A stretch of 64,000 nucleotides of DNA. Origin: an uncultured Candidatus Poseidoniales archaeon (GTDB lineage: Archaea > Thermoplasmatota > Poseidoniia > Poseidoniales > CAYMED01). The translations under genes were made by a program, and so were the position numbers. Under the pieces are notes generated by a model. It saw only the letters and a program-made list of their open reading frames with translations. It was not told the DNA's origin and did not search any database. How positions within the stretch are numbered: the stretch's first letter is position 1; each line of letters starts with the position of its first letter. The stretch covers positions 1 to 64,000 of the forward strand of contig CAYMED010000004.1 in the NCBI GenBank assembly GCA_964389655.1, written 5' to 3'. Shown one piece after another: positions 13,084 to 30,038 of the stretch.

Positions 13084-13611
13084 GTGGGGAATATCGTGCT
13101 TGGTGGGGGTTGTTTTTGGTGTTTAGAGGCAATTTTTGAACAAGTAAAGGGGGTACTCAAAGTTACACCTGGCTATGCTGGGGGGGAATGTGAAAAACCC
13201 ACCTACGAAATGGTGTGCTCAAAAAATACTGGTCATGCTGAAGTCGTAAATATTGATTACAATAAATCAATAATTAAAATGGATATGCTTCTCGAGATTT
13301 TTTTTGCTATCCATAATCCTACAACTATTAATCAGCAAGGAAATGATATTGGACCACAATATCGGTCAATTATTTTGACAAATTCTGAAAGTGAAATAGA
13401 ACTTTGCAAGAAGAAAATGAAAGAAATAGAGGAAGAAAATCTATGGGAAAATGAACTGGTTACTGAAGTTTTTTTATTGGAAAAGTTTTGGCCTGCTGAA
13501 GATTATCATTGGGGATATTTTAGGAAAAATCCCAATCAGGGATATTGTGCAGCCGTGGTGAATCCAAAATTATCAAAGTTTAGGAAACAATTCGCTGAAC
13601 TGATTTATTAA
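13084..13611 (+). CDS. msrA: Peptide-methionine (S)-S-oxide reductase
   Basis: 'GGGCFWCLE', 'GHAEVV', 'GNDIGPQYRS', 'AEDYHWGY'. Confidence 0.95.
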   Translation: MGNIVLGGGCFWCLEAIFEQVKGVLKVTPGYAGGECEKPTYEMVCSKNTGHAEVVNIDYNKSIIKMDMLLEIFFAIHNPTTINQQGNDIGPQYRSIILTNSESEIELCKKKMKEIEEENLWENELVTEVFLLEKFWPAEDYHWGYFRKNPNQGYCAAVVNPKLSKFRKQFAELIY

Positions 13612-14939
13612 TCAGAGTCAAAAATTTGATTCAAAATCCAATCTGCATCGAAGACTTTCAGATCATCGTATTCTTGCCCTGTACCAATCAAAACAATAGG
13701 GCGGCCGGTTGCGTGCGCGATTGACAAAGAAGCTCCCCCTTTAGCGTCTGTATCAAGCTTTGAGAGCACACATCCATCAAATGCTAGCATGCGTTGGAAT
13801 TCAACTGCTTGTTCAACTGCATCGTTTCCTGCCAATGCATCGCCAACAAAGAGGACGAGATGAGGAGAAGAAACGCGGTGCACTTTCCGAAGTTCTTCCA
13901 TGAGGTTTGATTTATTTTGCATCCGACCAGCAGTATCAATTAGAACAACATCCATTCGTCGCGCTCGAGCGTGCTCAATTGCATCTCTTGCGATTGCGGC
14001 AGGGTCCCCGCCACGTTGACTTGAGACACAACGAATATCAAGTCGGTCAGCGTGACTTTGCAATTGGTCGATTGCCCCTGCACGAAAAGTATCTCCTGCG
14101 GCCAACACAACTCTCTTCCCTTGAGACTTCAGGGCATGAGCAATTTTGGCGGTAGTTGTTGTTTTCCCAGTACCATTTACACCAACCAACATAATCGAAA
14201 CTGGCGTATCTCCTTCAGCAAGAAGTGAATCTACTGTTGAAAAGAAATCCCAGGAAGATGATGTCAAAAGAGAACGAAGAGAACGAATGACTGATGCTTC
14301 GATTACTCGGCTAAGATCGGCTCCTTTTCGAAGGCGCCTACCAATTAATTCACTTCGAATCAAATCAGTGAGTGCCTCGGTTGCTCGTTGACTCATATCT
14401 GCTTCTAAAAGAATTGTTTCAATTTCCTCCAATAATTCATCAAGGGCTTTTCCGTTTTTGATAATGCGCCCGCCAGATTCGACAATTCCTCCGCCCAAAT
14501 CAACTTCCATCGTTGAGCCAGATTCAGACAAAAATTCTCGTTGTATAGTTGATCCACGAGGACTTGAAGAAACATCAACTAATTTTCTGCCAGTTGTTGA
14601 GCGTTGTACGCGCAAATGGATGGCGGATCCTTCTGGAATTATTTCTGATGATTCGAGAGGTTTCTTGATTTCCTTAGCCAAACGGCGCTTTTCTTTACGA
14701 GTTAATTGGCGGGGGGGAGAAATTTCTTCGTCATCCCAATCATCCCATTCTTCATCTGCCAAAGGAATCGGGCTAGGTTGGTTTATTGGAAGTTTAATCT
14801 CAGTCTTGCGCCGCATTTCCTGACCCAAGCGAACGGCTTCCTTTGCATCTTCACTTCCTTCATCAGTTGATATTTCGGAAACTTCGGCATCAGCAGCAGC
14901 CTCGCGAACTCGGCGGCGGAAGCGGTCAAAAAGGCCCAT
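13608..14939 (-). CDS. ftsY: Signal recognition particle receptor FtsY
   Basis: 'GVNGTGKTTT', 'DTFRAGA', 'DTAGR', 'KLDTDAKGG', 'GTGQEYDDL'. Confidence 0.97.
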   Translation of the reverse strand: MGLFDRFRRRVREAAADAEVSEISTDEGSEDAKEAVRLGQEMRRKTEIKLPINQPSPIPLADEEWDDWDDEEISPPRQLTRKEKRRLAKEIKKPLESSEIIPEGSAIHLRVQRSTTGRKLVDVSSSPRGSTIQREFLSESGSTMEVDLGGGIVESGGRIIKNGKALDELLEEIETILLEADMSQRATEALTDLIRSELIGRRLRKGADLSRVIEASVIRSLRSLLTSSSWDFFSTVDSLLAEGDTPVSIMLVGVNGTGKTTTTAKIAHALKSQGKRVVLAAGDTFRAGAIDQLQSHADRLDIRCVSSQRGGDPAAIARDAIEHARARRMDVVLIDTAGRMQNKSNLMEELRKVHRVSSPHLVLFVGDALAGNDAVEQAVEFQRMLAFDGCVLSKLDTDAKGGASLSIAHATGRPIVLIGTGQEYDDLKVFDADWILNQIFDSD

Positions 14940-14948
14940 TCTTTCACT

Positions 14949-15476
14949 TCAGTCATCAAGAGTTAATCCCCCCCCAAATGATCGCCTCGACGATCTAATT
15001 GGTGGGTTTAAATTGTCCAAATCTAATCCTTTTTCTTTTCCATTCAAATCCACAGATTCATCTGTTTTTTCAATAGTCTTCGTAGTTTCTTCAAATTGAA
15101 GAGCAAACTTTCTGAGAGCGACTTCTGTTCGGTTGATTTCCTCATCGAGTTGATTAAGAAGATCGTCTAAATCTTTTATTCGAAGTTTGAGTAAATCTGC
15201 TGCGCGGGGAAAGGGCATCTGAGCATGAATTCCACTCCCCACATCAAGCAGCGTTGAACTGCTGGAATCCAATTGAACGCGCAGTGTTGCGCCAGCTCCA
15301 ATCGGAATAAGGGCTGCTTCTTCTTTACCTGAAAATGAAAGAAGCGCACGAATAGTATCTGTATGCTCATCGTGTACTGTCTTTACTCGAGACCTTTGGG
15401 ATTGCAATTCGGTCATCCTATCGCGGTTTAATTCGATAAGTTTCGCAAGGTTTTGTAGTTCATCGCTAGAGGACAT
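14949..15476 (-). CDS. pfdA: Prefoldin subunit alpha
   Basis: Coiled coil, 'LIPIGAG...LLDVGSG' hairpins, coiled coil; conserved archaeal order rpl18a-pfdA-ftsY; start ATG 15476. Confidence 0.85.
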   Translation of the reverse strand: MSSSDELQNLAKLIELNRDRMTELQSQRSRVKTVHDEHTDTIRALLSFSGKEEAALIPIGAGATLRVQLDSSSSTLLDVGSGIHAQMPFPRAADLLKLRIKDLDDLLNQLDEEINRTEVALRKFALQFEETTKTIEKTDESVDLNGKEKGLDLDNLNPPIRSSRRSFGGGLTLDD

Positions 15477-15483
15477 TCGGGCT

Positions 15484-15720
15484 TCACCCGGTAGAGTGAG
15501 ATTTGAAATGATGCTGCACTGAAGGATCTGAAGATTCTGTCGGGTCAATTGATTGGGAAGAATCAATAGAAATTTGACGGCGAGAAACGCGGTGCCGGCT
15601 GCCGAGGAGGGATTTTACTTTCTCAAGGGCACCATCTTCATCCGCAGCTACAACATCAATAGAGAAGGGTTGCTGAGCACGCCCGCTTGAGAAGGCCCCA
15701 GCTATTCGCCATGCTTTCAT
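15484..15720 (-). CDS. rpl18a: 50S ribosomal protein L18Ae (LX)
   Basis: 'MKAWRIAG.F...ALEKVKSLLGSRHRVSRRQISI'; synteny with pfdA-ftsY. Confidence 0.9.
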   Translation of the reverse strand: MKAWRIAGAFSSGRAQQPFSIDVVAADEDGALEKVKSLLGSRHRVSRRQISIDSSQSIDPTESSDPSVQHHFKSHSTG

Positions 15721-15780
15721 GTATGCACCCACAAACGAGGCCCCCTTAAACGCGCCGCGGGGAAGACAGGTTCAATCGTA

Positions 15781-18700
15781 ATGCTAGATCTCGAAGGGTT
15801 AGTGAACAATAGAATCGGACTGAGCATGGCCCTTGTTATGCTATTTCATTTACTAGCACCGGTAATAGCTAATGAAAGCAATTTAGCGGAAGAATATTCT
15901 GAAAATTATGGCTTTGGGATTGAAGTAATTGTGGAAGCAAATGATTCAAGCGAGATTCAAGAAAAAGGAATGATACCTTTGCGATATCTTGGAAATGGGG
16001 AATGGAACGCGTGGATGTCATTTGGAGAAGATAAAGGGGTGCGAAAAGCACCGGATGCGGAAATTCGAGATACGGAAGTTATACAAAACGAAAATCTACC
16101 AATACGGGTTGTTCTTGAGCCGAATTTACCACCACATATTGCTAAAGAACGAGTCGAAATAATCTCACAAAGATTGGGTTTTCAGTGGGAGGAAATAGAT
16201 GATATCGAAGGAAGAGAAGGTGAAGATGAGAAAATTTATGCATCGATTCCCCCTGATGGATCTGCAAGAATTGGTGTTATTCAAATTCCAGCAATGGGAG
16301 ATCAAGCAATCGTTTTTGTTCAAGAATTTGCGAGTATTCAAGGCGTATTATGGATAGAACCGGACTTGCCTGCACATTCACGAAATTCAGCTGCGGCAGC
16401 ACAACTTGCAGAAGGGATGGAAAATATTCAACCCTCGGCTGCATGGGAATGGGGATTAAACGGGTCGGGTATTATTTTGGCATCTGCTGACACTGGAATA
16501 GATCGTGATCACGCTTGCTTTAGACAAGGAGTTGAAGATCCAAATGATGCTGGAAACATGACAGGGGTTCCTGGAGAAAATCACCGGAAAATCCTCATTC
16601 TCAATGAAACAATTGACGATTGGGATGATCCAGGGCCAGACCACAGACATGGAACCCACACTGCGGGATCACTTGCTTGTTGGCCGATTGATGAAATGCA
16701 AGCAATGGAGCGAGGTGAAGTTGGAGGATCTTATCCTTCAGCGATAACTGCTGCAAGTCATGCTGCTAAACTTGTAATTCAAGATATTGTACTAGACTCG
16801 TGGGCTCCACCTGAAATTGACAGGATTTTGGTAGAGGGAGGGTTAGGTGGGGCCGTAATTCATTCTGAATCGTGGGGTGATGATACAACAGCATATTCTC
16901 AACGGAGTGCTGATTTGGACTCTTGGCTAAGGGAGCATCCTTGGTCAATTGCAGTTATAGCGCCTGGAAATCAAGGTTCTACTGTTTTAGAACCTGCTAA
17001 TGCAAGAAATATACTCTCTATTGGGGCTGCAAACAGAAATAATGACCTCTATTCGTGGTCAAACATAGGGCCCACTGCCGATGGAGAAATTGGAATTCAT
17101 TTAGTCGCCCCAGGAATGGGCATAAAATCTGCACAAGGGGATGGAGACCACACCTCGTTTAATGGAGGAGAAAGAACCAGTACTGGAACTTCAATGGCTG
17201 CTCCAGTGACTGCTTCAACTCTAGGGCTCTTACAACAAATGGTTGAGCAAGGTTGGTTGATTGATGATGAAATACCAAATCAAAACGTCGAAGTTTCCTC
17301 ATTGCGCCCTATTTGGGCTACTGGTTCAAGCAAAGGGGGGGAATTATTGCTTGGTAAGGGTTTCACGCCCAGTGGGTCTTTGATTAGGGCGTTAGCAACA
17401 GCATCTGCAGATTCACTTGAGGGAGGGAATCATGGTTCAAATCAAATTGGACATATAATTGATGAGCGTCAAGGTTGGGGGAGAATTAATCTCTCAAAAA
17501 TCATAGATTGGGACGAATTAGACGGGAAATTAGTTGATTCTGATTCTTCTTTAATTCCTGCGCCGGGGGTTTGGATTCATGATTCATACCGGATCAAATC
17601 TAATTCAAGTCCAAAAGATCTTTTGGCAAATCGAATGGAACAGGGGTCGGGTTCAAGGCCGTTAGATCGCATAACCACAGCCCCCTTAGACCCATCGGGT
17701 TTAGATGGTCCATTTCTTACTAATGGGAAAGAAGTTTCATGGAGTTTAGTGCCAGATTATGATACACTAAATCGTACTGGCGAATTGATTATTCAATTGG
17801 CCTGGCCAGATAGACCTAGATTTTCATCCGCTCATGATGACCTTGATTTATGTGTGTCATTGGACGACCAATGGCACACATGCGGGAATTTACTGAACAA
17901 TGGAAAATCAATCATGGATTCATCGTTAAATGATTCAAGAGCAAGAGGGGATATTTTATCTTCGATTGAAGGCATCAGAATTCCGGCAGTAGATATACAA
18001 GGAATTAATCGGATCATTGTACGAGTACTTGCAGATGATATTGGAACAGGGAATAAAACTGGAACCCTAGGCATCAATGGAGATAAAATTGGATTTTCAT
18101 TAGTTACAATTGGTGCAAGACCGGCACAAATGAGAGGGGAATGGAATCAATGGCCAAATTGGTCTCGCGGAACTCTGAACCAGATGGGCACATCTTCTTT
18201 TGAAAATTTAGGAGGGGATGTAACAATCAACTGGAGGGAAAATGAGGGAAACGTTGAAATTAATGTAGAAGAAGGAATGGGTGTTAATGCAATCAATGGG
18301 CGAGAAAACAGAACTGGTGCTGTCATACCAATTACACGTATAGTAAATATTTCAGATGTTTCTCGTATTGTTTTAGGAATAGAAGAAATAACTAATGATT
18401 CTCCATGGGAATTCGGAAATAATCCAGTATTAGCAGAGATTGTAAAATGCAGTGCTGGAATTCTTGGATGCACCTCAAACGGAACTGATGTAACTAATCT
18501 TGATGAGAATTCTATGCTTTCGATTTCTTGGCCTGTTGAATTTTCGGGACAAGCAATTATTGATGTATCAGTAATTTGGAATAATGGAAGCAATCTAAAT
18601 GCTCTAATTAGCACTATAATTGCACGGAACTGGGATGGAAAATTATCAACAATAGAAGTCTCAAATATTCTAGATTGGAATTGGTATCCCGATGATGCAT

Positions 18701-19890
18701 TAGGAAATGAACCTACTATAGAAATGCAAAATGGTGGTGCAAAATTCAACTTAGAGGGCGTAAAAGGGAGTGGGAGGTTGGTTATTTCCATGCCACTAGA
18801 TGTGAATTCAAGCACCATCGCGCAATGGACATGGGTGGAAGGTGGTTCTACCCCTCCTGATCCACACCATGATTCTGCTAGGCAGCTAAGGTGCTTCGAA
18901 GTAGAACCACTTATGGAAAATGGACCTACAAAAAATGTTACTGATAGAGATCATGGGTGGTCACACCCTGGTTTACATGATTGTGAAGGCATTCGTGTTA
19001 TCTTTGATATGGTCTGGAAAAACAAATCCGATCTTATCCAGAGTGTCGGAAAACCTTGGAATGATTTGGCTGGAAATTCCGATGGGGCCATTCGAGGACT
19101 TATCATTGGAACTTGGACCCCTGATCTCTCTCAAATGCCGTGGGAAATTTCCTCTAACAATGGACCAGAGGAAGTAACTTGTTCTATGATCGTTGCTGGA
19201 ATGTCAATGTCCTGCCAAGAAAAATTAAATTTAGAAGTTGGTGGAGAAGTTATTATTCTTCATTCATGGGTAGAAGGAAATGAAATTAGGAGCACTGCAT
19301 TACCACTTATTTCTCCTTTGATAAACATTTTAGATTCATCTTCAATTTGGATTTCAATTAATTTAACATCATCATTAATTCAACTTGATGGGCCCGACAT
19401 ACCATTACCTTTGATATTCGAAACAACGCCAAAAAAAGATCAAAAAATAATCGAATTAGATATTTTTTGGCCTGATAGGTGGCCAATTAAAATTGAAAAA
19501 TTAGAATGTGATGATTTACGAATCTTGCTCCCCGATATAGCCGAAATTTATGGAAATGGAACAAATATGGTTATTCGACCAAACAGTTCATGGAAATGGA
19601 CTATATCGAATAATGAAATTTTAGGGGAAAATAATGAAAGCCACATTCGAGCCCCATTAATTTCTGCTGGACGGGTTCTTGCCCCTGACTCGTGTTTAGA
19701 TGAAATTGTTGAAGATCATTCTTCATCAAATAATTCCACGGACGATTCTCGTGATGTCTCGGCAAATCAATTTAGTGAGTTAGGAGAGGGATTACGCGTA
19801 CCAATAATCATTGCTTGGGTGGGCATCTCTTCAATCATGCTTGGAATGATAATTCGAACAAAAATAAACAAAAAAAAAGTAAAAAAATAA
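15781..19890 (+). CDS. Large membrane-anchored S8 (subtilisin-like) serine peptidase
   Basis: Triad 'ADTGID', 'HGTHTAG', 'GTSMAAP'; oxyanion 'APGN'; signal peptide and C-terminal TM plus Lys tail; start possibly GTG 15802. Confidence 0.9.
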   Translation: MLDLEGLVNNRIGLSMALVMLFHLLAPVIANESNLAEEYSENYGFGIEVIVEANDSSEIQEKGMIPLRYLGNGEWNAWMSFGEDKGVRKAPDAEIRDTEVIQNENLPIRVVLEPNLPPHIAKERVEIISQRLGFQWEEIDDIEGREGEDEKIYASIPPDGSARIGVIQIPAMGDQAIVFVQEFASIQGVLWIEPDLPAHSRNSAAAAQLAEGMENIQPSAAWEWGLNGSGIILASADTGIDRDHACFRQGVEDPNDAGNMTGVPGENHRKILILNETIDDWDDPGPDHRHGTHTAGSLACWPIDEMQAMERGEVGGSYPSAITAASHAAKLVIQDIVLDSWAPPEIDRILVEGGLGGAVIHSESWGDDTTAYSQRSADLDSWLREHPWSIAVIAPGNQGSTVLEPANARNILSIGAANRNNDLYSWSNIGPTADGEIGIHLVAPGMGIKSAQGDGDHTSFNGGERTSTGTSMAAPVTASTLGLLQQMVEQGWLIDDEIPNQNVEVSSLRPIWATGSSKGGELLLGKGFTPSGSLIRALATASADSLEGGNHGSNQIGHIIDERQGWGRINLSKIIDWDELDGKLVDSDSSLIPAPGVWIHDSYRIKSNSSPKDLLANRMEQGSGSRPLDRITTAPLDPSGLDGPFLTNGKEVSWSLVPDYDTLNRTGELIIQLAWPDRPRFSSAHDDLDLCVSLDDQWHTCGNLLNNGKSIMDSSLNDSRARGDILSSIEGIRIPAVDIQGINRIIVRVLADDIGTGNKTGTLGINGDKIGFSLVTIGARPAQMRGEWNQWPNWSRGTLNQMGTSSFENLGGDVTINWRENEGNVEINVEEGMGVNAINGRENRTGAVIPITRIVNISDVSRIVLGIEEITNDSPWEFGNNPVLAEIVKCSAGILGCTSNGTDVTNLDENSMLSISWPVEFSGQAIIDVSVIWNNGSNLNALISTIIARNWDGKLSTIEVSNILDWNWYPDDALGNEPTIEMQNGGAKFNLEGVKGSGRLVISMPLDVNSSTIAQWTWVEGGSTPPDPHHDSARQLRCFEVEPLMENGPTKNVTDRDHGWSHPGLHDCEGIRVIFDMVWKNKSDLIQSVGKPWNDLAGNSDGAIRGLIIGTWTPDLSQMPWEISSNNGPEEVTCSMIVAGMSMSCQEKLNLEVGGEVIILHSWVEGNEIRSTALPLISPLINILDSSSIWISINLTSSLIQLDGPDIPLPLIFETTPKKDQKIIELDIFWPDRWPIKIEKLECDDLRILLPDIAEIYGNGTNMVIRPNSSWKWTISNNEILGENNESHIRAPLISAGRVLAPDSCLDEIVEDHSSSNNSTDDSRDVSANQFSELGEGLRVPIIIAWVGISSIMLGMIIRTKINKKKVKK

Positions 19891-20005
19891 GAGACTGAGT
19901 CCCATATTTCTTGCTACAATATATTTTTCACTAAAAAAAAAAGAAGAACTAATTCGCCCATAATATCAAAACCTCGACTTCACTCCCTCTATTGAAGGTG
20001 AAAGA

Positions 20006-21019
20006 ATGACTGAGAGACTCTACCTTGGAATCGATTTAGGCACATACCATTCAGTGATCATGGGAGACAATGATTCAAATGTTCGAATTGAGACTGTTGT
20101 TGGGCGACCAAAAGACCCAATTGCACGAAATTTCTTAGGGCGGGATGTTCTATTTGGAGCAGAGGCATTGAAAAATAAACTTGCTTGTAAAATCTACAGA
20201 CCTCTTCGATCTGGTGTTGCACAAGATGATGAAACAAACCGAGCGGCTGCTCGATCGTTCGTACAGCACTTGATTGAAGAAATTGGACCCGAAGAATATG
20301 ATGAGGTATACGGGGTAATCTGTAGCCCATCAAGCATATCTTTTACAGATAAGAGCAATTTAATGTCTTTCTTAAAGGGACAAGTGAATGCATTGATGGT
20401 TGTTTCAGAACCTTTTGCTGTTGCATTTAGTATGGATGAAATTGGTGGATCAATTATCGTTGATATCGGTTCTGGAAGCACAGATATTGCAAGAATATAT
20501 GGTACCTTCCCAAAAGATGAAGACCAATTAACAATAGAAAATGCAGGAGATAATGTTGATGAATTACTCGCCGATATGATTCGTAAGAAATTTACTGGAG
20601 CACAAGTAACTATTGACATGGTGCGTAAATGGAAAGAAGAAAATTCCTATGTTTTTGAAGATAGCCCCCGTGTTGTGGAAGTCGAATTGGCTGTTGAAGG
20701 AAAAACACAAACTGTTGATATTGGTGATTTAATTATGCAAGCATGTGATTCATTAGCAACACCAATTGTAATTGGGCTAAAAGAAATCATTGCAAATGCA
20801 GATCCTGAATATCAGCCCCTTTTGAGAAATAATATCATCCTTGCAGGAGGAGGTTCACTAATTGAAAATCTCGATAAACGAGTTGCAGCAGAGTTAGCAG
20901 ATATTGGTGACATTACAATTAGTTGTGTTGACGATCCATTCGTACGAGTTGCTGACGGTGCATTGAAGTTGGGTTTAATCATGCCGGATGATCAATTCGT
21001 TGAAGTCCCATCTGATTAA
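20006..21019 (+). CDS. Actin-like ATPase of the MreB/MamK family, MamK-like
   Basis: Phosphate-1 'LGIDLGT', 'VVSEPF', phosphate-2 'VDIGSGSTD', adenosine 'NIILAGGGS'; MamK-like segments 'VVGRPKD', 'GTFPKDEDQLTIENAG', 'PEYQ'; SD-like gaaggtga upstream. Confidence 0.9.
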   Translation: MTERLYLGIDLGTYHSVIMGDNDSNVRIETVVGRPKDPIARNFLGRDVLFGAEALKNKLACKIYRPLRSGVAQDDETNRAAARSFVQHLIEEIGPEEYDEVYGVICSPSSISFTDKSNLMSFLKGQVNALMVVSEPFAVAFSMDEIGGSIIVDIGSGSTDIARIYGTFPKDEDQLTIENAGDNVDELLADMIRKKFTGAQVTIDMVRKWKEENSYVFEDSPRVVEVELAVEGKTQTVDIGDLIMQACDSLATPIVIGLKEIIANADPEYQPLLRNNIILAGGGSLIENLDKRVAAELADIGDITISCVDDPFVRVADGALKLGLIMPDDQFVEVPSD

Positions 21020-21101
21020 TTCTATTGAAACCAACACTCAACGCCCCAATCTTGAGGGGAGGATTGAAAGGCGGTTGAAGGTGCATCCACCTTGATTCGC
21101 T

Positions 21102-22256
21102 ATGAGTGCTGTGGCTCGACCCGATTCTGTCGATGTCTCTACTGCTGGTGAACTAGACAATGCTGAGAAGGCAGCCCTAGCAGGTATGCTTGAAGGATAT
21201 CCAAAAGAACAACTTGTATCTGAAGTTCTTTCTGCTTGGACAGATTTAGGCGGAGCAAATTCAGAATTAGCTGATTTAAAGCAAAGGGTTCGGATGCTTG
21301 AACTTGATCTTGAAGAAAGAGAAGAAGAAGGTGCACCAGACCGTGCTTTGCTTGATCGATCAGAAGCTGAGCGGCGGGACTTAGAAGCGAGAGTTTTGCA
21401 TTTAGAAAGATTACTTGAAGATGCAAGAGCGGAGCGAGAGGCACTCTCAGGCTCTATGACTCAACAACGAATGATTCAACTTGAAACAGATCGAGATCGA
21501 TTGCAGATTCTTTCAGATGAACAACAACAAGTCATTGAAGAAATGGAAAGTCGTTTATCCGAACTAGTTGAAGCATTGCAAAATGCTGCAGATGCTGGCT
21601 TAACATCATTATCTGCTGAACAGGTACGATTTCTTGAAGCTGCATTATCCGATTCAAATACAAGAATAGCAGAACTAGATGAAGAAATGCGATCTACAAA
21701 TTCTGAACGAGACCGTTTGCGAGAGATTACCGAACGATTGAGGACTCTTGTTGAACAAAGGGATGAACGAATTTCTGAACTGGAAACTATTGTAGATGAA
21801 ATTCGTCATGGGCCACGAAGTATTAGTGCAGAACATGACTATTTAGTAGAACAAATTGAAGAATTAAAACGCAGGTTGCTTGAGCGAAATCGAGAATATG
21901 AATCATTAAGGCGGAGAGAGAGAAAACTGCACAAAGATGTATTTGAGCGAGATGAACGATTGGCTCAACTCCAATTAACAATTACTGACTTTGAAGCTGC
22001 TTTACAGGATAGGATGGCTGAACTCAAAGAAATCGAAATTCGTCATGATAAAGCACTGAACGAACTTCAAAGACTCAGAGATGATGCGCGAACTCGTGAT
22101 GTTGTAGATAGAGCATTTATTGACAGCCTTACTGTTCGAAGATCTGCTGAAGAAAAAAATCGATCTGATAATTCTGAAGAAGAAATCACTTCATCTAATG
22201 ATGCGCCAAATTTACCCGGCGGTTATGCTCCGCCAGCCGATTTAGATGATGATTGA
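21102..22256 (+). CDS. Long coiled-coil protein (filament/SMC-rod-like, no ATPase motifs)
   Basis: About 290 aa of E/L/R/Q-rich heptad sequence with short non-helical head and tail; no TM. Confidence 0.75.
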   Translation: MSAVARPDSVDVSTAGELDNAEKAALAGMLEGYPKEQLVSEVLSAWTDLGGANSELADLKQRVRMLELDLEEREEEGAPDRALLDRSEAERRDLEARVLHLERLLEDARAEREALSGSMTQQRMIQLETDRDRLQILSDEQQQVIEEMESRLSELVEALQNAADAGLTSLSAEQVRFLEAALSDSNTRIAELDEEMRSTNSERDRLREITERLRTLVEQRDERISELETIVDEIRHGPRSISAEHDYLVEQIEELKRRLLERNREYESLRRRERKLHKDVFERDERLAQLQLTITDFEAALQDRMAELKEIEIRHDKALNELQRLRDDARTRDVVDRAFIDSLTVRRSAEEKNRSDNSEEEITSSNDAPNLPGGYAPPADLDDD

Positions 22257-23056
22257 ATGGCATCAGAAATCACTTTTACTCGTTTTTGAATTGCTGAAGC
22301 ATTTTCACTTTCTTCAATTACAGTTCCTATGACAATCCAATGTGCTCCTGAATTTGCTGCGGCAAGTGCAGATGTTGAATTAGTAATGCCACCACCTACC
22401 AAAATGGTAAGGCCATCAACATTGGCTGATTTAATCAATTCAGGAGAAACTGGAGTTGGTGATCCACTACCTGCTTCAAGATAGAGAAATTTCATCCCAA
22501 ATCCCTTCGCTGTCAAGGCTAGAGCTCGAATACGCTCAACATCAGAGGGCATAACTAAATCTGCTTCACCAACTTCTCCTGCTTTCATCCCAGGTGCACA
22601 AATTACGTATGCTGTAGGTAATGATTCAATTCCAAATTCTGTGATCAATGGAGCACCAATAATTTGTTCTGAAATAATATATCTAATCGATTTGCTATTC
22701 AAAAGCGACATGAAAAGAACGCCATCCGCTAAGGAGCTTAAAGCATTAGCAGTATTTGGAAATAATAATACAGGTACTCGCCAATAATTCTCATCAGAAG
22801 AAGGATCTTGAGATGCTGCCGAACACATTTCTTCCAAGGAAAGTTGTATCTCTTCAACTGTTCGATCAACTAAACTTACATCGTCAGAAGTTGATCCCCC
22901 AACAAGAATTAATCGGGCGCCACCCATAACTGCTGCAATAGCATTTTTAGCACCTTCATGAGGAAGTTGGCATTCAGGATCAATTAATACAGCAACGCGG
23001 GAAAGAAAAAAATCATCACACATGTAATTAAATATCGAATTGCTATCAAATTTCAT
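22223..23056 (-). CDS. Geranylgeranylglyceryl phosphate synthase (GGGPS/PcrB family)
   Basis: 'LIDP', 'LVGGS', 'ADGVLFMSLLNS', 'YLEAGSG', 'VGGGI', 'IVIGT'. Confidence 0.93.
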   Translation of the reverse strand: MKFDSNSIFNYMCDDFFLSRVAVLIDPECQLPHEGAKNAIAAVMGGARLILVGGSTSDDVSLVDRTVEEIQLSLEEMCSAASQDPSSDENYWRVPVLLFPNTANALSSLADGVLFMSLLNSKSIRYIISEQIIGAPLITEFGIESLPTAYVICAPGMKAGEVGEADLVMPSDVERIRALALTAKGFGMKFLYLEAGSGSPTPVSPELIKSANVDGLTILVGGGITNSTSALAAANSGAHWIVIGTVIEESENASAIQKRVKVISDAIQSSSKSAGGA

Positions 23057-23760
23057 TGTATCTCACCAAAATTAAAATTTTTTGCTAAATTTATTCCATG
23101 ATTAACAGATAATGAAATACTACCTGGAAATTCTCTAGATCGCCATGTTTTCATTTTTTCTAGCCATCCTGAAGTCGGTTCTCTGATTTCTTCCCCAGAT
23201 CTAAACCAAACTTCGCATGTTCCATCTTTTCTATGTATAATAGGAAAAGAAATAGAAATTGGGCATTGAGATTCGAGAACTAGCCCTCCATTCCATTCTA
23301 TAATCATAGGATTTTCAACTAAAGATCGTGCTCTTGCCCCGGGTACTGGAGGTTGAGTTCCTGAAGCATCTATGATTTGATATTGGTCAAGAGAAAGAGG
23401 CAATGGTGTGCCCCTTAATGCTTGATGATGATCTAATTTTTCTAACCAACACTTTGGATATATCCGTCCACCTTTCTGTGTAAATAGTATTGCTAAATTT
23501 TTTTCTACCCATTCTGGTCTCGCACCAGAAATGAAATTCTTTGGGGGATTTTGACTCCAACAAATGTGATCAAGAATTAAATTTTCAGAAAGCCAAGACA
23601 ATCCATTTTTGTTTATACCAATATTTCCTGATCTTCTAATTGGATTGCCAATTTCTTGACGATCATCAATTAATATAACCTCAAATTTCTTTTCAAGTAA
23701 TAAAATTCCAGCTACAAGGCCAGATATGCCACCACCACATATCAAAATCGGTTTATTCAA
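23053..23760 (-). CDS. FAD/NAD(P)-binding protein resembling a shortened geranylgeranyl reductase
   Basis: 'ICGGGISGL' Rossmann motif, 'DRQEIGNP' (GGR-like), 'IIDASG'; lies between ferredoxin and GGGPS. Confidence 0.6.
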   Translation of the reverse strand: MNKPILICGGGISGLVAGILLLEKKFEVILIDDRQEIGNPIRRSGNIGINKNGLSWLSENLILDHICWSQNPPKNFISGARPEWVEKNLAILFTQKGGRIYPKCWLEKLDHHQALRGTPLPLSLDQYQIIDASGTQPPVPGARARSLVENPMIIEWNGGLVLESQCPISISFPIIHRKDGTCEVWFRSGEEIREPTSGWLEKMKTWRSREFPGSISLSVNHGINLAKNFNFGEIQ

Positions 23761-23951
23761 GAATTTATCACCTCATTAATTTCAATTGCTTTAACAGGGC
23801 AACCGGGTAAACATAATTTGCATAAAGTACATTTTTTAATTTCAACTTCTGCTAATTGATTTTTTAAGATTAAAGCATCTACTGGACAGATCATGATGCA
23901 TGCTGCACAACCATAACAAAGATCGGATATGATCTCTAAAATTTCTGTCAT
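23757..23951 (-). CDS. 2x[4Fe-4S] ferredoxin
   Basis: 'CYGCAACIMICP' and 'CTLCKLCLPGCP'. Confidence 0.93.
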   Translation of the reverse strand: MTEILEIISDLCYGCAACIMICPVDALILKNQLAEVEIKKCTLCKLCLPGCPVKAIEINEVINS

Positions 23952-23993
23952 TATTACTACTGAATCGACTCCTATGGATGATTATATCGGACC

Positions 23994-24171
23994 AACCCCT
24001 ACTCTTCCATTGGAAATCAATGAATAATTCTGAATTTCATAATAAAATGATATGATATACTAGAATTCAATGATCATCTATACTGATAGTTCATAATTAT
24101 AGTTACAATTTTTATTTATAATTAATTAAATGATTTTGAGTATTACATTTTCCAATGGAAAAGTAGGGGTT
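23994..24171. other. Probable replication origin (oriC): two inverted ORB elements flanking an AT-rich unwinding element
   Basis: Reverse complement of 23994-24016 (tttccaatggaagagtaggggtt) matches 24149-24171 (tttccaatggaaaagtaggggtt) at 22/23; both fit the ORB pattern TCCA-N2-GGAA..-GGGGT; 132-bp very AT-rich spacer; intergenic between divergent genes. Confidence 0.8.
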
Positions 24172-24221
24172 CCTGATTAATTTGATCCATCGATTCAAGA
24201 GATGTTATTGTTTCCCAATTT

Positions 24222-25523
24222 ATGATGTCAAGTTCACAATACCAAGAGTCCAATATTTCTTATCGATTTTTGGGAGGTGGAGAAGAAATTGGTAATGTTG
24301 GAATTTTATTTGAAAATTCATCTCCTCATCCTCTTTTAATTGATTATGGATTAGCTCCAACTAATCCTCCAAGATATCCAATAACATCTCCAAATGTAAA
24401 AACAGTTATACTAACTCATGTTCATTTGGATCATGTTGGAATGGCCCCTTGGTTGGTTTCTAAATGGAATTCAAATCTTTATTGTACTTCAATCACTGCA
24501 GCATTGTTAGAACGAATGTGGAGAGATACTCTCAAAGTGAGTCAATTAGAAGGATATCCTCTCATTTGGGATATCCGTGATTTAGAAGATGCCTTAGATC
24601 ATCTAAAGATTTTTATTCATGAAGAATGGAATGTTACAGAAAATTGGAAATGGCGATCACATTCAGCAGGACATATTCCTGGTGCATCGATGATTGAAAT
24701 TGATGTGGGGCCTAAAACCATTTTAGTTACTGGAGATTATGATACTAGAGATTCACCAATTACATTTGGAGCTAAATCAATAGAAACAGATGTGCTATTT
24801 ACTGAAGGCACATATGGTGGTCGTGAACATCCATCACGTTTAGTAGAAGAATCTCGCTTTTTAGCGGAGATAGAACGAATAATAGCAAATGGTGGCACAA
24901 TATTAGTTCCCGTTTTCGCGGTTGGTAGAACTCAAGATATTTTGATAATTTTAAATCGACTTTCACCAGAAATAGAAATTCATTTGGATGGAATGGGAAA
25001 ATATGTAACTGAGGTAATGCTTGAACATCCTAGTTTTATCCGTAATCCGCAAGAATTAGAAATGGCATATCGCAGATCTCGAAGAGTTATTTCAAAACAA
25101 GATCGACGAAAAGCAATTGAACGAGCCAATGTAATTGTTTCGACTAGTGGTATGCTAAATGGTGGGCCGGCTCTTTGGTATTTAGATCGTTTAAGAAAAG
25201 ATCCAAGAAATGCCATATTCTTAACAGGTTATCAAGCGCAAGGATCTGGGGGCAGGAACTTAATTGAAAAATCAGAAATAGAAATTTGGAATAAAATAAC
25301 TCCAATTGACCTTTATGTAGACATCTTTGATTTCTCGACACACGCTGGAAATCAAGAAATTATTGATTTTGCATCTGATTCTAAAGCATCTGAAATCATT
25401 ATTTACCATTCAGAACCCCAATTATCTAGACCACAACTTGCATCACAATTACGTGACAATGGCCATGTTGTACATGAACCAATGAATGATTCTGTATATA
25501 GAATAAATCTCGGGCAGGATTGA
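24222..25523 (+). CDS. Metallo-beta-lactamase/beta-CASP ribonuclease (archaeal CPSF-like, no KH domains)
   Basis: 'LGGGEEIG', 'THVHLDHVG', 'AGHIPGA', 'TGD', 'EGTYG', 'FAVGRTQ', 'SGMLNGG', 'FSTHAG'. Confidence 0.9.
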   Translation: MMSSSQYQESNISYRFLGGGEEIGNVGILFENSSPHPLLIDYGLAPTNPPRYPITSPNVKTVILTHVHLDHVGMAPWLVSKWNSNLYCTSITAALLERMWRDTLKVSQLEGYPLIWDIRDLEDALDHLKIFIHEEWNVTENWKWRSHSAGHIPGASMIEIDVGPKTILVTGDYDTRDSPITFGAKSIETDVLFTEGTYGGREHPSRLVEESRFLAEIERIIANGGTILVPVFAVGRTQDILIILNRLSPEIEIHLDGMGKYVTEVMLEHPSFIRNPQELEMAYRRSRRVISKQDRRKAIERANVIVSTSGMLNGGPALWYLDRLRKDPRNAIFLTGYQAQGSGGRNLIEKSEIEIWNKITPIDLYVDIFDFSTHAGNQEIIDFASDSKASEIIIYHSEPQLSRPQLASQLRDNGHVVHEPMNDSVYRINLGQD

Positions 25524-25548
25524 AGCACTCAGGCTGTTTCCCCCATCT

Positions 25549-25857
25549 ATGGCTGGTCGTCCTCCTAGCACTGGGGCCCCCCCCCCTAAGGCTCCTCGAA
25601 AACGAAAAAAGCGTAAAGTCAAATTAACTTTGAAAAGCCGTTCCCTGAAAGAAGATACTTATGTTGACCGAAGAGGTTGGACAACAAATGCAACGAGCCG
25701 CAAGTTAACTGATGATGAAACCCCTAAATCTCAACCAGATTTTATCAAACATCAGTGTACTGGTTGTGGATATGTCCTCAAAGTTCCAAGACCAAAACGA
25801 GATCGCTATGTAGTTGAATGCCCTTCCTGCGAAACAAAAGACGAATTTGGAATATGA
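25549..25857 (+). CDS. Small basic protein with a C-terminal zinc ribbon
   Basis: K/R-rich N-terminus; 'CTGC' and 'CPSC'. Confidence 0.65.
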   Translation: MAGRPPSTGAPPPKAPRKRKKRKVKLTLKSRSLKEDTYVDRRGWTTNATSRKLTDDETPKSQPDFIKHQCTGCGYVLKVPRPKRDRYVVECPSCETKDEFGI

Positions 25858-25878
25858 TGTAATCAGGCCGGTCCTCAA

Positions 25879-27087
25879 ATGGAACAGTGGGTTAATTTGG
25901 CACAAGCCCAAGAAATCTGTCAACAACTTGAGGTATCACCTAAATCAGTAAATCAAGTATCACTGGACGATGCTTATGGTCGTCGCTTAGCATCCCAAAT
26001 TGTGGCAGTTAGGGACGATCCTTCTTTTGATCAAAGTGCAATGGATGGATTTGCAGTAAAGATTTCTGACACAATTAATGCTACTAAAAAAAATCCAATA
26101 CGACTTTCTCTTGTCGGTCAAATTGAAGCGGGTCTTCCAGCATCATTTCCTGAATTATTGGACGGCACAGCAATTAGTATCATGACCGGGGGAGCCGTTC
26201 CTCCAAATGCCGATGGGATTGTAATTGTAGAAGATACAAAAAAAATTGATTCTAATAGCATAGAAATTATGGCACCAGCTCAAAAACACATTAGGCGCAA
26301 AGGTGAAAATTTTTCTTCAGGTTCTTTTCTTGTTACTGCAGGCACTCGCTTATTGCCAGAACATATTGGCTTAATTGCTACTACTGGTTCCACCATGATA
26401 GAATGTTATCAGCAATTAACAATCGCAGTAATTCCTACAGGAAGTGAATTAGTTGAACCCGGATCATCTCCAGAATTTGGTCAAATATATGAGTCAAACG
26501 GCCATGGGATTTCATCTGAAATAATTCATGCAGGACATATTCCCCTTCGATATTCCCCAGTTAAGGATGACATTAATTTGCTACGAAAAGTTTTCGACGA
26601 AGCCTCTTCAAAAGCCGACGTCATCTTGACATCCGGGGGCGTTTCAATGGGCGCTTTTGATTTTGTTAGATCTTTGATTATTGAAGAAGGAGATGCCTTA
26701 TTTTGGAGAATTCGTATGAGGCCGGGCTCGCCTCCAATTGTCGGATGCTGGAATGGAACACCGATTTTTGGATTACCTGGAAATCCAGTATCATGTCATG
26801 TTTTATTTCGAGTTTTAGTCGAACCTTGGCTTTGTTATCAATTTGGATCCTCCTCTTCTGTCCAATTTATCCAAGCCCGTCTTGGGTCTCCAATTCGATC
26901 TCGGCATGATCGTCTTTGTCTTGATCGTGTTATACTAGAAAGAAATGGAGCAGAGATGGTTGCTTATCCAATTCCGCAACAATCATCAAGCCATCTTCGG
27001 GGTTTAGCAATTGCAAATGCTTTGGCATGGATAGATCCCGAATCTTCATCAGATAAGGGAGATATCATTCCTTGTTTTCTTCTATAA
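25879..27087 (+). CDS. moeA: Molybdopterin molybdotransferase MoeA
   Basis: 'SAMDGFA', 'IMTGG', 'TGSEL', 'TSGGVSMG', 'GLPGNPVS'. Confidence 0.95.
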
Positions 27088-27128
27088 ATTGCGATCGTTC
27101 AATAGCCGTCGCTGCTAGGGTCGGTTTC

Positions 27129-30038
27129 GTGCTTGAATCGCCTGATCCCGCTTCGCTCAGTCGAGATGGAGGAATCATTTCAGTTCGAGGAGCTCGTACC
27201 CATAATCTTGCAGATATTGATGTTGATATTCCTCGCGGAAGATTTGTTGTTGTTAGTGGTGTATCGGGTTCTGGGAAATCAAGTTTGGCTTTTGATACAC
27301 TCTATGCGGAGGGACAACGCAGGTACGTTGAATCTCTTTCAGCTTATGCAAGACAATTCTTGGGTCAAATGAAAAAAGCAGATTGTGATGGTATTGAAGG
27401 GCTTTCTCCGGCGATTAGTATTGATCAAAAGCAGGGCAGCCATAATCCTAGGTCCACTGTCTGCACAGTTACCGAAATTATGGACCATTTACGTCTTCTT
27501 TGGGCTCGAATTGGCATCCCTCATTGTCCTGAATGCGGAAAAGAAATTGCTCGTAGAACAGTTCAGCAACTAGTAGATAATATCCTTTGGCGCCACGATG
27601 GAAAGAATATTTCATTATGGGCCCCAGTGCTTCGTAGCCGCAAAGGATCGCATCATGAATTGATGACATCTTTGCATGACTCGGGCTATGTCTCTGCAAG
27701 AATAAATGGAAGAGAATCGGATCTTTCTTCCCCGCCCTCTTTAGAGCGTAATTTGCGACATGACATTGATGTCCGAATTGATCGTTTGAGTGTGTCAAAT
27801 CGCACAAAACAGCGATTAACAGAAGCCGTTGAAGATGGTCTTCGCCTAGGAGACGGTTCAATCATAATTGAAGCTCCTGAAGAAGATAAACAATCTATTC
27901 AAGAATTGCTCAGTGAAGAATTTGCTTGCCATGATCATGGATCATTCCTTCCTGAAATGAGTCCTCGCGTATTTTCTTTCAATAATCCGCTAGGTGCTTG
28001 TCAAAGGTGCGAAGGCCTTGGAGTTGTGCGACAATTTTCTGAATTTCTTGTAACGGATTCGAGTCGCTCTCTTATTGAGGGCGCAATTCGCCCATTTTCT
28101 TCTTCAGCATCATCGAATTGGTATAGAAGTATGATGCAAGGTCTAGCGGCATATTATCAATTTCCTTTTGACCAACCATATGGTGAACTAGATGAAGATT
28201 CATGTGATCTTATCCTCTGGGGTAGCGGAACGACCCCCGTTCCTATTGAAGTAGCGACTGGATCAGGTGGGCAGTATAGAACAAACCGCCCATGGGAAGG
28301 CGTAATTCCACGTCTTGATCGTCTCCTCCGTGAAACAACATCCGATCGTAACCGGCAGCGCCTGATGAGTTACATGGAAGAACAGACTTGTATAGAATGT
28401 GGTGGAAGAAAATTGAATCCATCTTCATCGGGAGTTTTAGTTGGCGGGATTAATTTACCGCACTTTAATGATGCTACTGTAACAAAGGCACTTGAAATTG
28501 TATCTTCTTGGTTGAATGGTCCGAATTTACTTGATGAACGATCTCATCACATTGGCAAAGAAGTCATCAAAGAAATACAAACAAGGTTGCAATTTCTCCA
28601 GTCGGTAGGGCTGGGTTATCTTTCTCTTGACCGTAGAGCCAATACATTATCAGGTGGGGAGAGTCAGAGAATTAGATTAGCAACTCAAATTGGTAGCCAA
28701 CTTACTGGTGTGATGTACGTACTGGATGAACCATCTATTGGTCTCCATCAAAAAGATAATCAGAGACTTCTTGAAACCCTTCGTTCTCTCTGCAATTTAG
28801 GAAATACCCTTATCGTAGTAGAACACGATGAAGAGACATTGAGACAAGCAGATTGGATTGTGGATATTGGACCGGGAGCAGGAAAGAATGGGGGACATGT
28901 TGTTGCTTCAGGGCCACCTGATTATGTGATGAGTATTGAGGATTCTATTACGGGGGCTTATCTCTCAGGTCGGACTTCAATCCCGCTTCCCGAAATACGT
29001 ACCCTTCCAGATTTTAAAAATTCGATAAAATTATGTGGGGCCAGACATAATAATCTCTCTTCGATTGATGTTGTATTTCCACTTGGGTGTATGATTTCAG
29101 TTACGGGTGTATCTGGTTCAGGTAAGTCGAGTCTTGTCACTGCAACCCTTGCTCCCGCATTAAGGAAAGAAATTCATGGCATAGATGTAATTCCTGGAAG
29201 ATATGACCGAATAGATGGTATTGAAAATATCGATAAAGTAGTGGTAATTGATCAATCTCCAATTGGGCGCACTCCTCGTTCTAATCCAGCAACTTATACC
29301 AAAGCATTTGATGAAATACGCAATTTATTTTCTCAAACTCAAGTATCAAAAGAGCGAGGCTGGAAACCGGGTCGTTTTTCGTTTAATGTTCGTGGAGGGA
29401 GATGTGAAGCCTGCCGGGGTGCTGGCCAAATTAAGTTAGAGATGAATTTCCTTCCAGATGTATGGATCACTTGTGAAGAGTGCAAAGGAAAGCGCTACAA
29501 TCGCGAAACACTTGAAGCAACTTGGAAGGGACGGACTATACACGATATTCTTGAAATGTCTATTTCACATGCTTATGATTTTTTCAAACCAATCCCGAAA
29601 TTAGAGCGCATTCTTGGAACTTTAGTTGATGTTGGACTAAGTTATATCCATCTAGGACAACCAGCTACAACACTATCGGGTGGCGAAGCACAGCGCGTTA
29701 AATTGTCATCAGAACTCAAGAGACCTGCAGGCCGTCATACGGTATACATTCTAGATGAACCAACGACGGGTCTTTCTCTGCATGATATTCGTCAATTAAT
29801 TGGTGTCCTCCATCGTTTAAGGGATAAGGGGCACACGATAATTGTCATTGAGCATCATCTTGACGTGATTAAATCAAGTGATTGGATAATAGATCTCGGT
29901 CCCGAAGGAGGAGATGGTGGAGGTTGGCTGATTGCTGAAGGTCCTCCAGAAGTTATTTCCCATCATGCAACGAGTTATACTGGTGCGGTTTTGGCCCCAA
30001 CTCTTGATTTTAGAAAAAATGTATCATCACAGGATTGA
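27129..30038 (+). CDS. uvrA: Excinuclease ABC subunit A
   Basis: Two '[10 protein letters not shown]' Walker A motifs, two 'LSGGE' signatures, Zn fingers, '[20 protein letters not shown]'; likely GTG start 27129. Confidence 0.97.

Follow-up and report, generated by a model that had tools for sequence, protein, structure and literature searches.

The window considered here is a stretch of 64,000 nucleotides (nt) at the start of contig CAYMED010000004.1 from an uncultured Candidatus Poseidoniales archaeon (assembly GCA_964389655.1), that is, from Marine Group II (MGII). On its forward strand it carries an actin gene (20006..21019; protein P0001, 337 amino acids [aa]), which is followed by the gene for a coiled-coil protein that we call the rod (21102..22256; protein P0002, 384 aa). 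We think it probable, at about 0.6, that the two proteins form a lineage-specific two-part cytoskeletal module of MGII (Poseidoniales). This interpretation builds on the fold and family placement of the actin, its conserved catalytic residues, the adjacency of the two genes, their joint presence and loss, and a sequence core that lies upstream of both genes in relatives. In such a module the actin would most likely form ATP-dependent filaments, and the rod would most likely be an elongated coiled-coil dimer, about 50 nm long if fully extended, that may bind, bundle, anchor or regulate the filaments, which in turn would position a putative cargo. The rod might do so through its C-terminal two-thirds, via the block formed by residues 237-293 and/or a C-terminal PGG...acidic peptide.

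An initial annotation of this DNA, made from the letters alone, had described both open reading frames (ORFs) exactly as we find them, and had proposed that the first encodes an actin of the MamK type rather than MreB, ParM or crenactin. This proposal holds in comparisons of sequence and of structure. In a HMMER search against PDB sequences, residues 3-329 of P0001 align to the MamK chains 5jyg, 5ljv and 5ljw with an E-value of 1e-57, followed by BeeR (8r2n, 1.5e-36) and MreB (1e-14); every motif pair that the annotation had quoted is present in the alignment to 5jyg and 5ljv. The AlphaFold2 (AF2) model of P0001 (pLDDT 89.3) finds its best fold match in the MamK filament subunit 5ljv_A (TM scores 0.92/0.95, root-mean-square deviation 1.6 Å, 35% identity), ahead of BeeR (0.89) and MreB (0.79). 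With the NCBIfam models, P0001 obtains 316.7 bits for MamK (NF040964, residues 5-333 against model positions 1-329; cut-off 400), 209 for BeeR (NF053558; 530), 67-79 for the MreB models (293-366; for TIGR00904, 67 against 365.75), 50 for salactin (400), 19 for ParM (417) and 17 for crenactin (630). The fold comparison gives the same order for MamK, BeeR and MreB. A label taken from the Pfam model MreB_Mbl (PF06723) alone would say MreB, because P0001 scores 76 bits and passes the loose threshold of 27 of that model; P0001 stays far under the MreB equivalog and subfamily cut-offs, and a canonical MreB was not found in this genome. Residues E135 and D153 of P0001 are invariant among its relatives and align with E143 and D161 of MamK, which we take to be the positions altered in ATPase-deficient MamK mutants.

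The actin is widespread in the order. It is carried by 75 of the 121 Poseidoniales genomes in our order sample: by all 59 genomes of one family (f3), by 14 of 60 in a second (f2), and by the small family to which the window itself belongs (f1). Most carriers hold two copies, type A, to which P0001 belongs and whose members are about 60-69% identical to it (60-69% across families), and type B, with about 45% identity. In the phylum sample of 301 genomes, none of the eight from the sister order has the gene, and distant copies (35-41% identity) occur in seven scattered, larger genomes. In a phylogeny that is rooted on MreB, and whose tips do not include a Magnetospirillum MamK sequence, P0001 branches apart from MreB, the outgroup being set off by a very long starred branch. 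Its sister is the copy from a genome of the same genus (G001). Types A and B fall into one starred Poseidoniales clade, which points to a duplication of the actin early in the order, at its base or close to it. Bacterial MamK-like proteins (from Planctomycetota, Acidobacteriota, Nitrospirota and others) form a weakly supported sister group (SH-aLRT 90). On the MamK model, bacterial and other archaeal relatives reach 378-432 bits, with seven of the ten that were scored passing 400, and the other actin copies of the window's own genome reach 339.6 and 357.5 bits. Since the Poseidoniales clade falls within a set of proteins above the MamK cut-off, it appears as a divergent offshoot inside a broad MamK clade. 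The full-length best match in both sequence and fold, the position in the tree, and the conserved nucleotide-binding and catalytic residues place P0001 there as well: by these comparisons it is a full-length, predicted ATPase of the actin fold and a divergent member of that clade.

The second protein is a Poseidoniales-specific coiled-coil rod, recognised by its predicted helices, its heptads and its conserved adjacency to the actin. The annotation had described it as almost entirely helical coiled coil with short ends, in agreement with the AF2 model (pLDDT 79.5), which has helices at residues 20-31, 35-164, 172-235 and 242-358 and disordered ends, and with the heptad periodicity (z = 11 over residues 20-358). 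From N- to C-terminus, a disordered head is followed by three helical segments, with an invariant linker at each of the two junctions between them, and then by a disordered tail. The hydrophobic periodicity of 3.5 residues gives z = 11 for residues 172-235, 6.7 for 242-358 and 0.9 for 35-164. The rod is very acidic (net charge -38). Its most conserved part, residues 237-293, is near-invariant across families and has a net charge of +1 (+3 within 250-280). Both helix breaks coincide with invariant motifs, AGLTS and GPRS.S, and the C-terminus ends in a conserved short PGG...acidic motif behind a variable linker. Near-invariant blocks such as these are unusual in a purely structural coiled coil.

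We did not find a curated family for the rod in Pfam or NCBIfam, where the only hits are coiled-coil noise (SMC arms, Rad50); neither library yields a DNA-binding family on it, and its family profile has no match among PDB sequences at E <= 0.01. A database label, "chromosome segregation ATPase", was discounted as it fits the SMC coiled-coil noise. Matches to the rod profile were confined to Poseidoniales, with 0 in a sample of 238 other Thermoplasmatota genomes. The annotation had called the rod intermediate-filament- or crescentin-like. As a description of layout this stands, since crescentin and the bacterial intermediate-filament-like proteins likewise have a head, a segmented rod and a tail; as a statement of homology it does not, because unlike a member of that family the rod matches the Pfam crescentin rod (PF19220) without significance (E 0.44, 10 bits against a cut-off of 100). 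Crescentin clusters are the nearest named ones by language-model features (score 0.93, 150 shared features), a weak match that we treat as a lead only.

The linkage of actin and rod extends to relatives. In 28 of the 30 loci that were counted, the gene that comes next after the type-A actin is a rod homologue; in the window the spacer measures 82 nt. In two genomes (G107 and G101) the genes are pushed apart by insertions of 1.6-3.9 kb and remain on the same strand. The order sample did not reveal a full-length rod gene without a type-A actin. In six genera of family f2 that lack the actin (genome sizes 1.3-1.7 Mb), the rod is reduced to a frame of 140-190 aa that matches residues ~20-162. Two such remnants (G026, C1:183993-184418; G022, C1:684978-685391) sit in the same chromosomal place; these two, from genomes of a Thalassarchaeaceae type, are ORFs of ~165 aa that equal the first third of the rod and are located 1.8-2.2 kb from the pair of origin recognition boxes (ORBs) described below. 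The head and first segment of the rod may have a role independent of the actin. Taken over these related genomes, whose loci are not phylogenetically independent observations either for adjacency or for joint loss, the linkage favours a functional pair.

A shared element upstream of the two genes adds to this picture. An 8-nt core, AAGGTTCA, occurs at fixed positions before both genes in relatives. Ahead of the actin it is reversed, 59-66 nt from the start, and 13 of 27 loci have it exactly. Past the actin stop, at 55-75 nt, it reads forward; 15 of 27 loci carry the exact core there, and 26 of 27 a copy with one mismatch or none. Of 189 control windows, 1 contained it. A 13-mer around the core is not enriched genome-wide over a reversed control; it is a local element rather than a general promoter motif or the mark of a definable regulon. 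In the window, TTGAAGGTG, a degenerate relative of AAGGTTCA, overlaps a Shine-Dalgarno-like GGTGA just before the actin start (19992..20000, forward strand), and a further TTGAAGGTG, followed by a near-palindromic partner (AAGGTG..CACCTT), lies in the actin/rod spacer (21075..21093, forward strand); both were read from the sequence.

The alternative that survives best is that the two are neighbours only, with the actin acting alone or with other partners, the rod having an unrelated job, and the adjacency reflecting regional synteny. The flanking genes are equally syntenic, and since the whole region is strongly so, adjacency of actin and rod is by itself a weak argument. The genes, with their 82-nt spacer, probably have separate promoters, they are split by insertions in G001, G107 and G101, and the N-terminal third of the rod persists where the actin is gone. 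Several of these observations count against the idea of a module, and others can be added. In G001, which belongs to the same genus as the window, the rod N-terminus resurfaces about 8.4 kb downstream of the actin on the same contig and strand, at the contig end. The joint losses of the actin and the C-terminal part of the rod may amount to one or a few events in a single family. The curated MamK cut-off is missed by P0001 itself. The exact AAGGTTCA core does not occur in this window, where the degenerate TTGAAGGTG stands before both genes and may in part be a ribosome-binding site. Against mere neighbourhood speak the rod remnants, which lack the C-terminal two-thirds in exactly those genomes that have no actin, an upstream core that is common to both genes, and the parallel pattern of one actin and one partner that is seen with type B. 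We consider mere neighbourhood unlikely, though it is the foremost competitor of a two-part module.

The type-B parallel is as follows. The constant neighbour of type B is a zinc-ribbon protein of 339 aa, whose gene is adjacent in 17 of the 18 type-B loci that were counted. Given that type A has the rod and type B the zinc-ribbon protein, each actin copy has a dedicated neighbour. The type-B copy of the metagenome-assembled genome (MAG) that contains the window (G000:C15:58162-59151, locus L003) is 47% identical to P0001 and is the one that scores 357.5 bits on the MamK model. The 339-aa protein encoded before this copy has zinc-ribbon motifs at its two ends, and the copy is followed, on the opposite strand, by the gene of a small membrane protein whose C-terminus carries a zinc ribbon.

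The initial annotation had also pointed to a probable replication origin nearby and had suggested that the filaments might segregate the chromosome. The ORB pair is real. Two ORB-type repeats of 23 nt (TTCCAATGGAA[A/G]AGTAGGGG; 23994-24016 and 24149-24171, 96% complementary) form an inverted pair around a 132-nt AT-rich spacer (23994..24171), starting 1.74 kb past the end of the rod gene; we treat it as context. The gene order around it is S8 peptidase, actin and rod on one strand, followed on the other by GGGP synthase, a reductase-like gene and ferredoxin, then the inverted ORB pair, and thereafter beta-CASP, orf102, MoeA and UvrA, again in the direction of the actin. This order recurs in three families, namely in the window and on contig C24 of the same MAG (G000:C24), in G002, G004, G036 and G040 (f2), and in G009 (f3); in the window, G000:C24 and G009, the S8 peptidase is in turn preceded by FtsY and prefoldin. 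The distance from rod to ORB pair is about 1.5-2.5 kb in each conserved block. Proximity to an ORB-type site is accordingly a conserved feature of the locus across three families, one whose limits become apparent below.

The inverted ORBs and the AT-rich DNA between them probably represent a replication origin or a site of Orc binding. No orc1/cdc6 gene is adjacent: across the three families, orc1 was never seen beside the pair. The best orc1/cdc6 gene of the MAG lies on another contig (C1:89152-90240), 5.3 kb from a single ORB (C1:83850). In the complete genome G003 the arrangement is the same, with the ORB pair at 203.7 kb and orc1 at 1.83 Mb. This suggests either two origins or a single origin and a separate Orc site.

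Could the pair be a machine for origin or chromosome segregation, similar to the type II ParMRC systems, in which filaments move origins and the rod, as an adaptor, links them to DNA close to the ORBs? The distance of 1.7-2.5 kb between module and ORB pair in all of the loci just listed would agree with such a role, as would the one locally basic, near-invariant block of the rod and the recurring core upstream of both genes. If true, such origin-linked segregation, coupled to the DNA through block 237-293, would give archaea their first known chromosomal partition system driven by an actin (type II-like), and the conserved location of the genes at 2 kb from the ORBs would be functional. However, three unrelated genes (GGGP synthase, the short reductase-like gene and ferredoxin) lie between the pair and the ORBs, and the position is part of a syntenic housekeeping block of about 20 kb. 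In genus g3 the actin/rod pair has come to lie ~17 kb from the ORBs through a rearrangement and is intact, and genomes without the actin retain the ORB pair. The rod combines its charge of -38 with the lack of a DNA-binding domain, a search next to the pair for a centromere-like repeat array found none, the ParM model gives 19 of the 417 bits called for, and orc1 and another ORB are located elsewhere. The conserved position near an origin-like site does not show chromosome movement, and beyond that position the proposal of a segregation role is unsupported. We regard it as improbable, more so than mere neighbourhood.

Least probable, by a small step, is a scaffold that organises the membrane or cell surface or acts in division, in which filaments would position an anchored S8 peptidase or take part in division or shape change: at all loci examined, the gene immediately before the actin encodes an anchored protein of the S8 type, whose C-terminus is a membrane anchor with a short basic tail, but neither actin nor rod has a membrane-binding sequence feature, the S8 sequence is poorly conserved (31-44% identity over part of its length), and the cells are simple cocci ~0.7 µm across (PMC6864105). 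The same coccoid shape makes a role in rod-shape control, one form of the cell-shaping function that the annotation had considered, unlikely. In the window the S8 (subtilase) peptidase (15781..19890, forward strand; 1369 aa, anchored in the membrane at its C-terminus and with a lysine-rich tail, Pfam Peptidase_S8) is a context gene, which finishes in an A-rich tract of low complexity (19857-19890).

The closest known counterpart of the proposed two-part module by the sequence and fold of its actin, at ~35% identity, is MamK of Magnetospirillum (PDB 5jyg, 5ljv, 5ljw) with its partners MamJ, MamY and McaA/B. The two actins are of equal length, share the nucleotide-binding and catalytic motifs, and each goes with an acidic partner protein. 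They differ in that P0001 has an archaeal host and scores below the family cut-off, and in that the rod is unrelated to MamJ. The neighbouring genes (S8 peptidase, GGGP synthase, ferredoxin, beta-CASP, MoeA, UvrA) do not provide the context of a magnetosome cluster. Consistent with what the annotation had stated, a Pfam scan of nine neighbouring ORFs detected no MreC, MreD or magnetosome family, a result confined to those ORFs since mam genes were not searched for genome-wide.

MamK-like actins outside the magnetotactic bacteria are known. Saltatorellin, from the non-magnetotactic Saltatorellota, forms filaments in E. coli and in Magnetospirillum (bioRxiv 10.1101/817700), and an older survey noted some archaeal members in the MamK branch (PMC2651865). 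P0001 resembles saltatorellin as a MamK-clade actin outside the magnetotactic bacteria, and Planctomycetota-type proteins are among its nearest bacterial relatives (37-41% identity); unlike P0001, saltatorellin is bacterial and has no described coiled-coil partner, and several such bacterial relatives exceed the MamK cut-off, at 408-432 bits, which the Poseidoniales clade does not. BeeR, a tubule-forming actin, is the second-best match, but P0001 is only 28% identical to it and lacks ~18 positions of its model (residues 5-331 against model positions 1-345). Salactin has been named as the closest relative of MamK (PMC10746226). Like salactin, Ta0583 and archaeal MreB, P0001 is an archaeal protein of the actin fold; unlike salactin, whose models give P0001 42-50 bits across libraries, the Poseidoniales actins are much closer to MamK proper. 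The Poseidoniales actins also show the MamK clade to be a general-purpose prokaryotic actin family and not a magnetosome speciality.

The arrangement of an actin gene beside the gene of a dedicated partner is shared with the crenactin-arcadin, ParM-ParR-parC and AlfA-AlfB systems. There, a short peptide at one end of the partner binds the actin. The Poseidoniales locus differs from crenactin and ParM in the scores of their models (17-19 bits), in the lack of a centromere array, and in having as partner a long acidic rod in place of a ribbon-helix-helix DNA binder.

We know of nothing that has been established about the internal organisation of MGII cells, and in the literature on MamK, MreB or actin in Poseidoniales/MGII we found no description of the actins, the rod or the module. 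The combination of an actin with a coiled-coil protein is thus probably undescribed. New here are also the order-wide link of the locus to the ORB pair, with the limits given above, the presence at that locus of an ORB site without orc1, and the most likely origin of contig C24 discussed below. A strongly conserved MamK-clade actin with two paralogues, each with a partner gene, suggests that a tiny coccoid archaeon has a filament system yet to be studied. Since actin and rod are both small and look soluble, polymerisation, binding and structure can be addressed with recombinant proteins without culturing the organism.

Some actin loci call for comment on their origin. Contig C24 of the MAG (G000:C24:1-14000, locus L048) duplicates the whole block of window positions 13600-30000, including FtsY, prefoldin, S8 peptidase, actin, rod, GGGP synthase, ferredoxin, ORB pair, beta-CASP and MoeA, with protein identities of 30-62%. 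A duplication of the module within the genome was rejected, as the repeat covers a whole block of single-copy genes and the C24 actin is not the sister of the window's. Most likely, C24 is a co-binned contig of another Poseidoniales lineage; the contamination of the MAG is 5.7%. Actins of the Poseidoniales type also occur on contigs filed as Verrucomicrobiales (ARS100; L086), Deltaproteobacteria (AH-558-G13; L092/L107) and Yoonia sp. (L099), with identities of 62-63% (type A) or 45-46% (type B). These are probably mis-binned archaeal contigs rather than cases of gene transfer.

Elsewhere in the Thermoplasmatota, MamK-like actins have other neighbours. At four loci from large genomes (L039, L040, L041 and L046), the actin, which passes 400 bits in L039, is followed by a highly charged protein of 430-630 aa. 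These charged proteins share an N-terminal "..HVST..YG" region and belong to no Pfam family; as candidate homologues of the rod they were rejected (hhalign probability 0.7%). In another family of the phylum (L042, G261:C71; L044, G226:C15), the MamK-like actin is 35% identical to P0001 and scores 378 bits. It adjoins an uncharacterised protein of 320-340 aa, and its neighbours resemble, by eye, a chemotaxis operon with CheY-, CheA-, CheD- and CheC-like genes.

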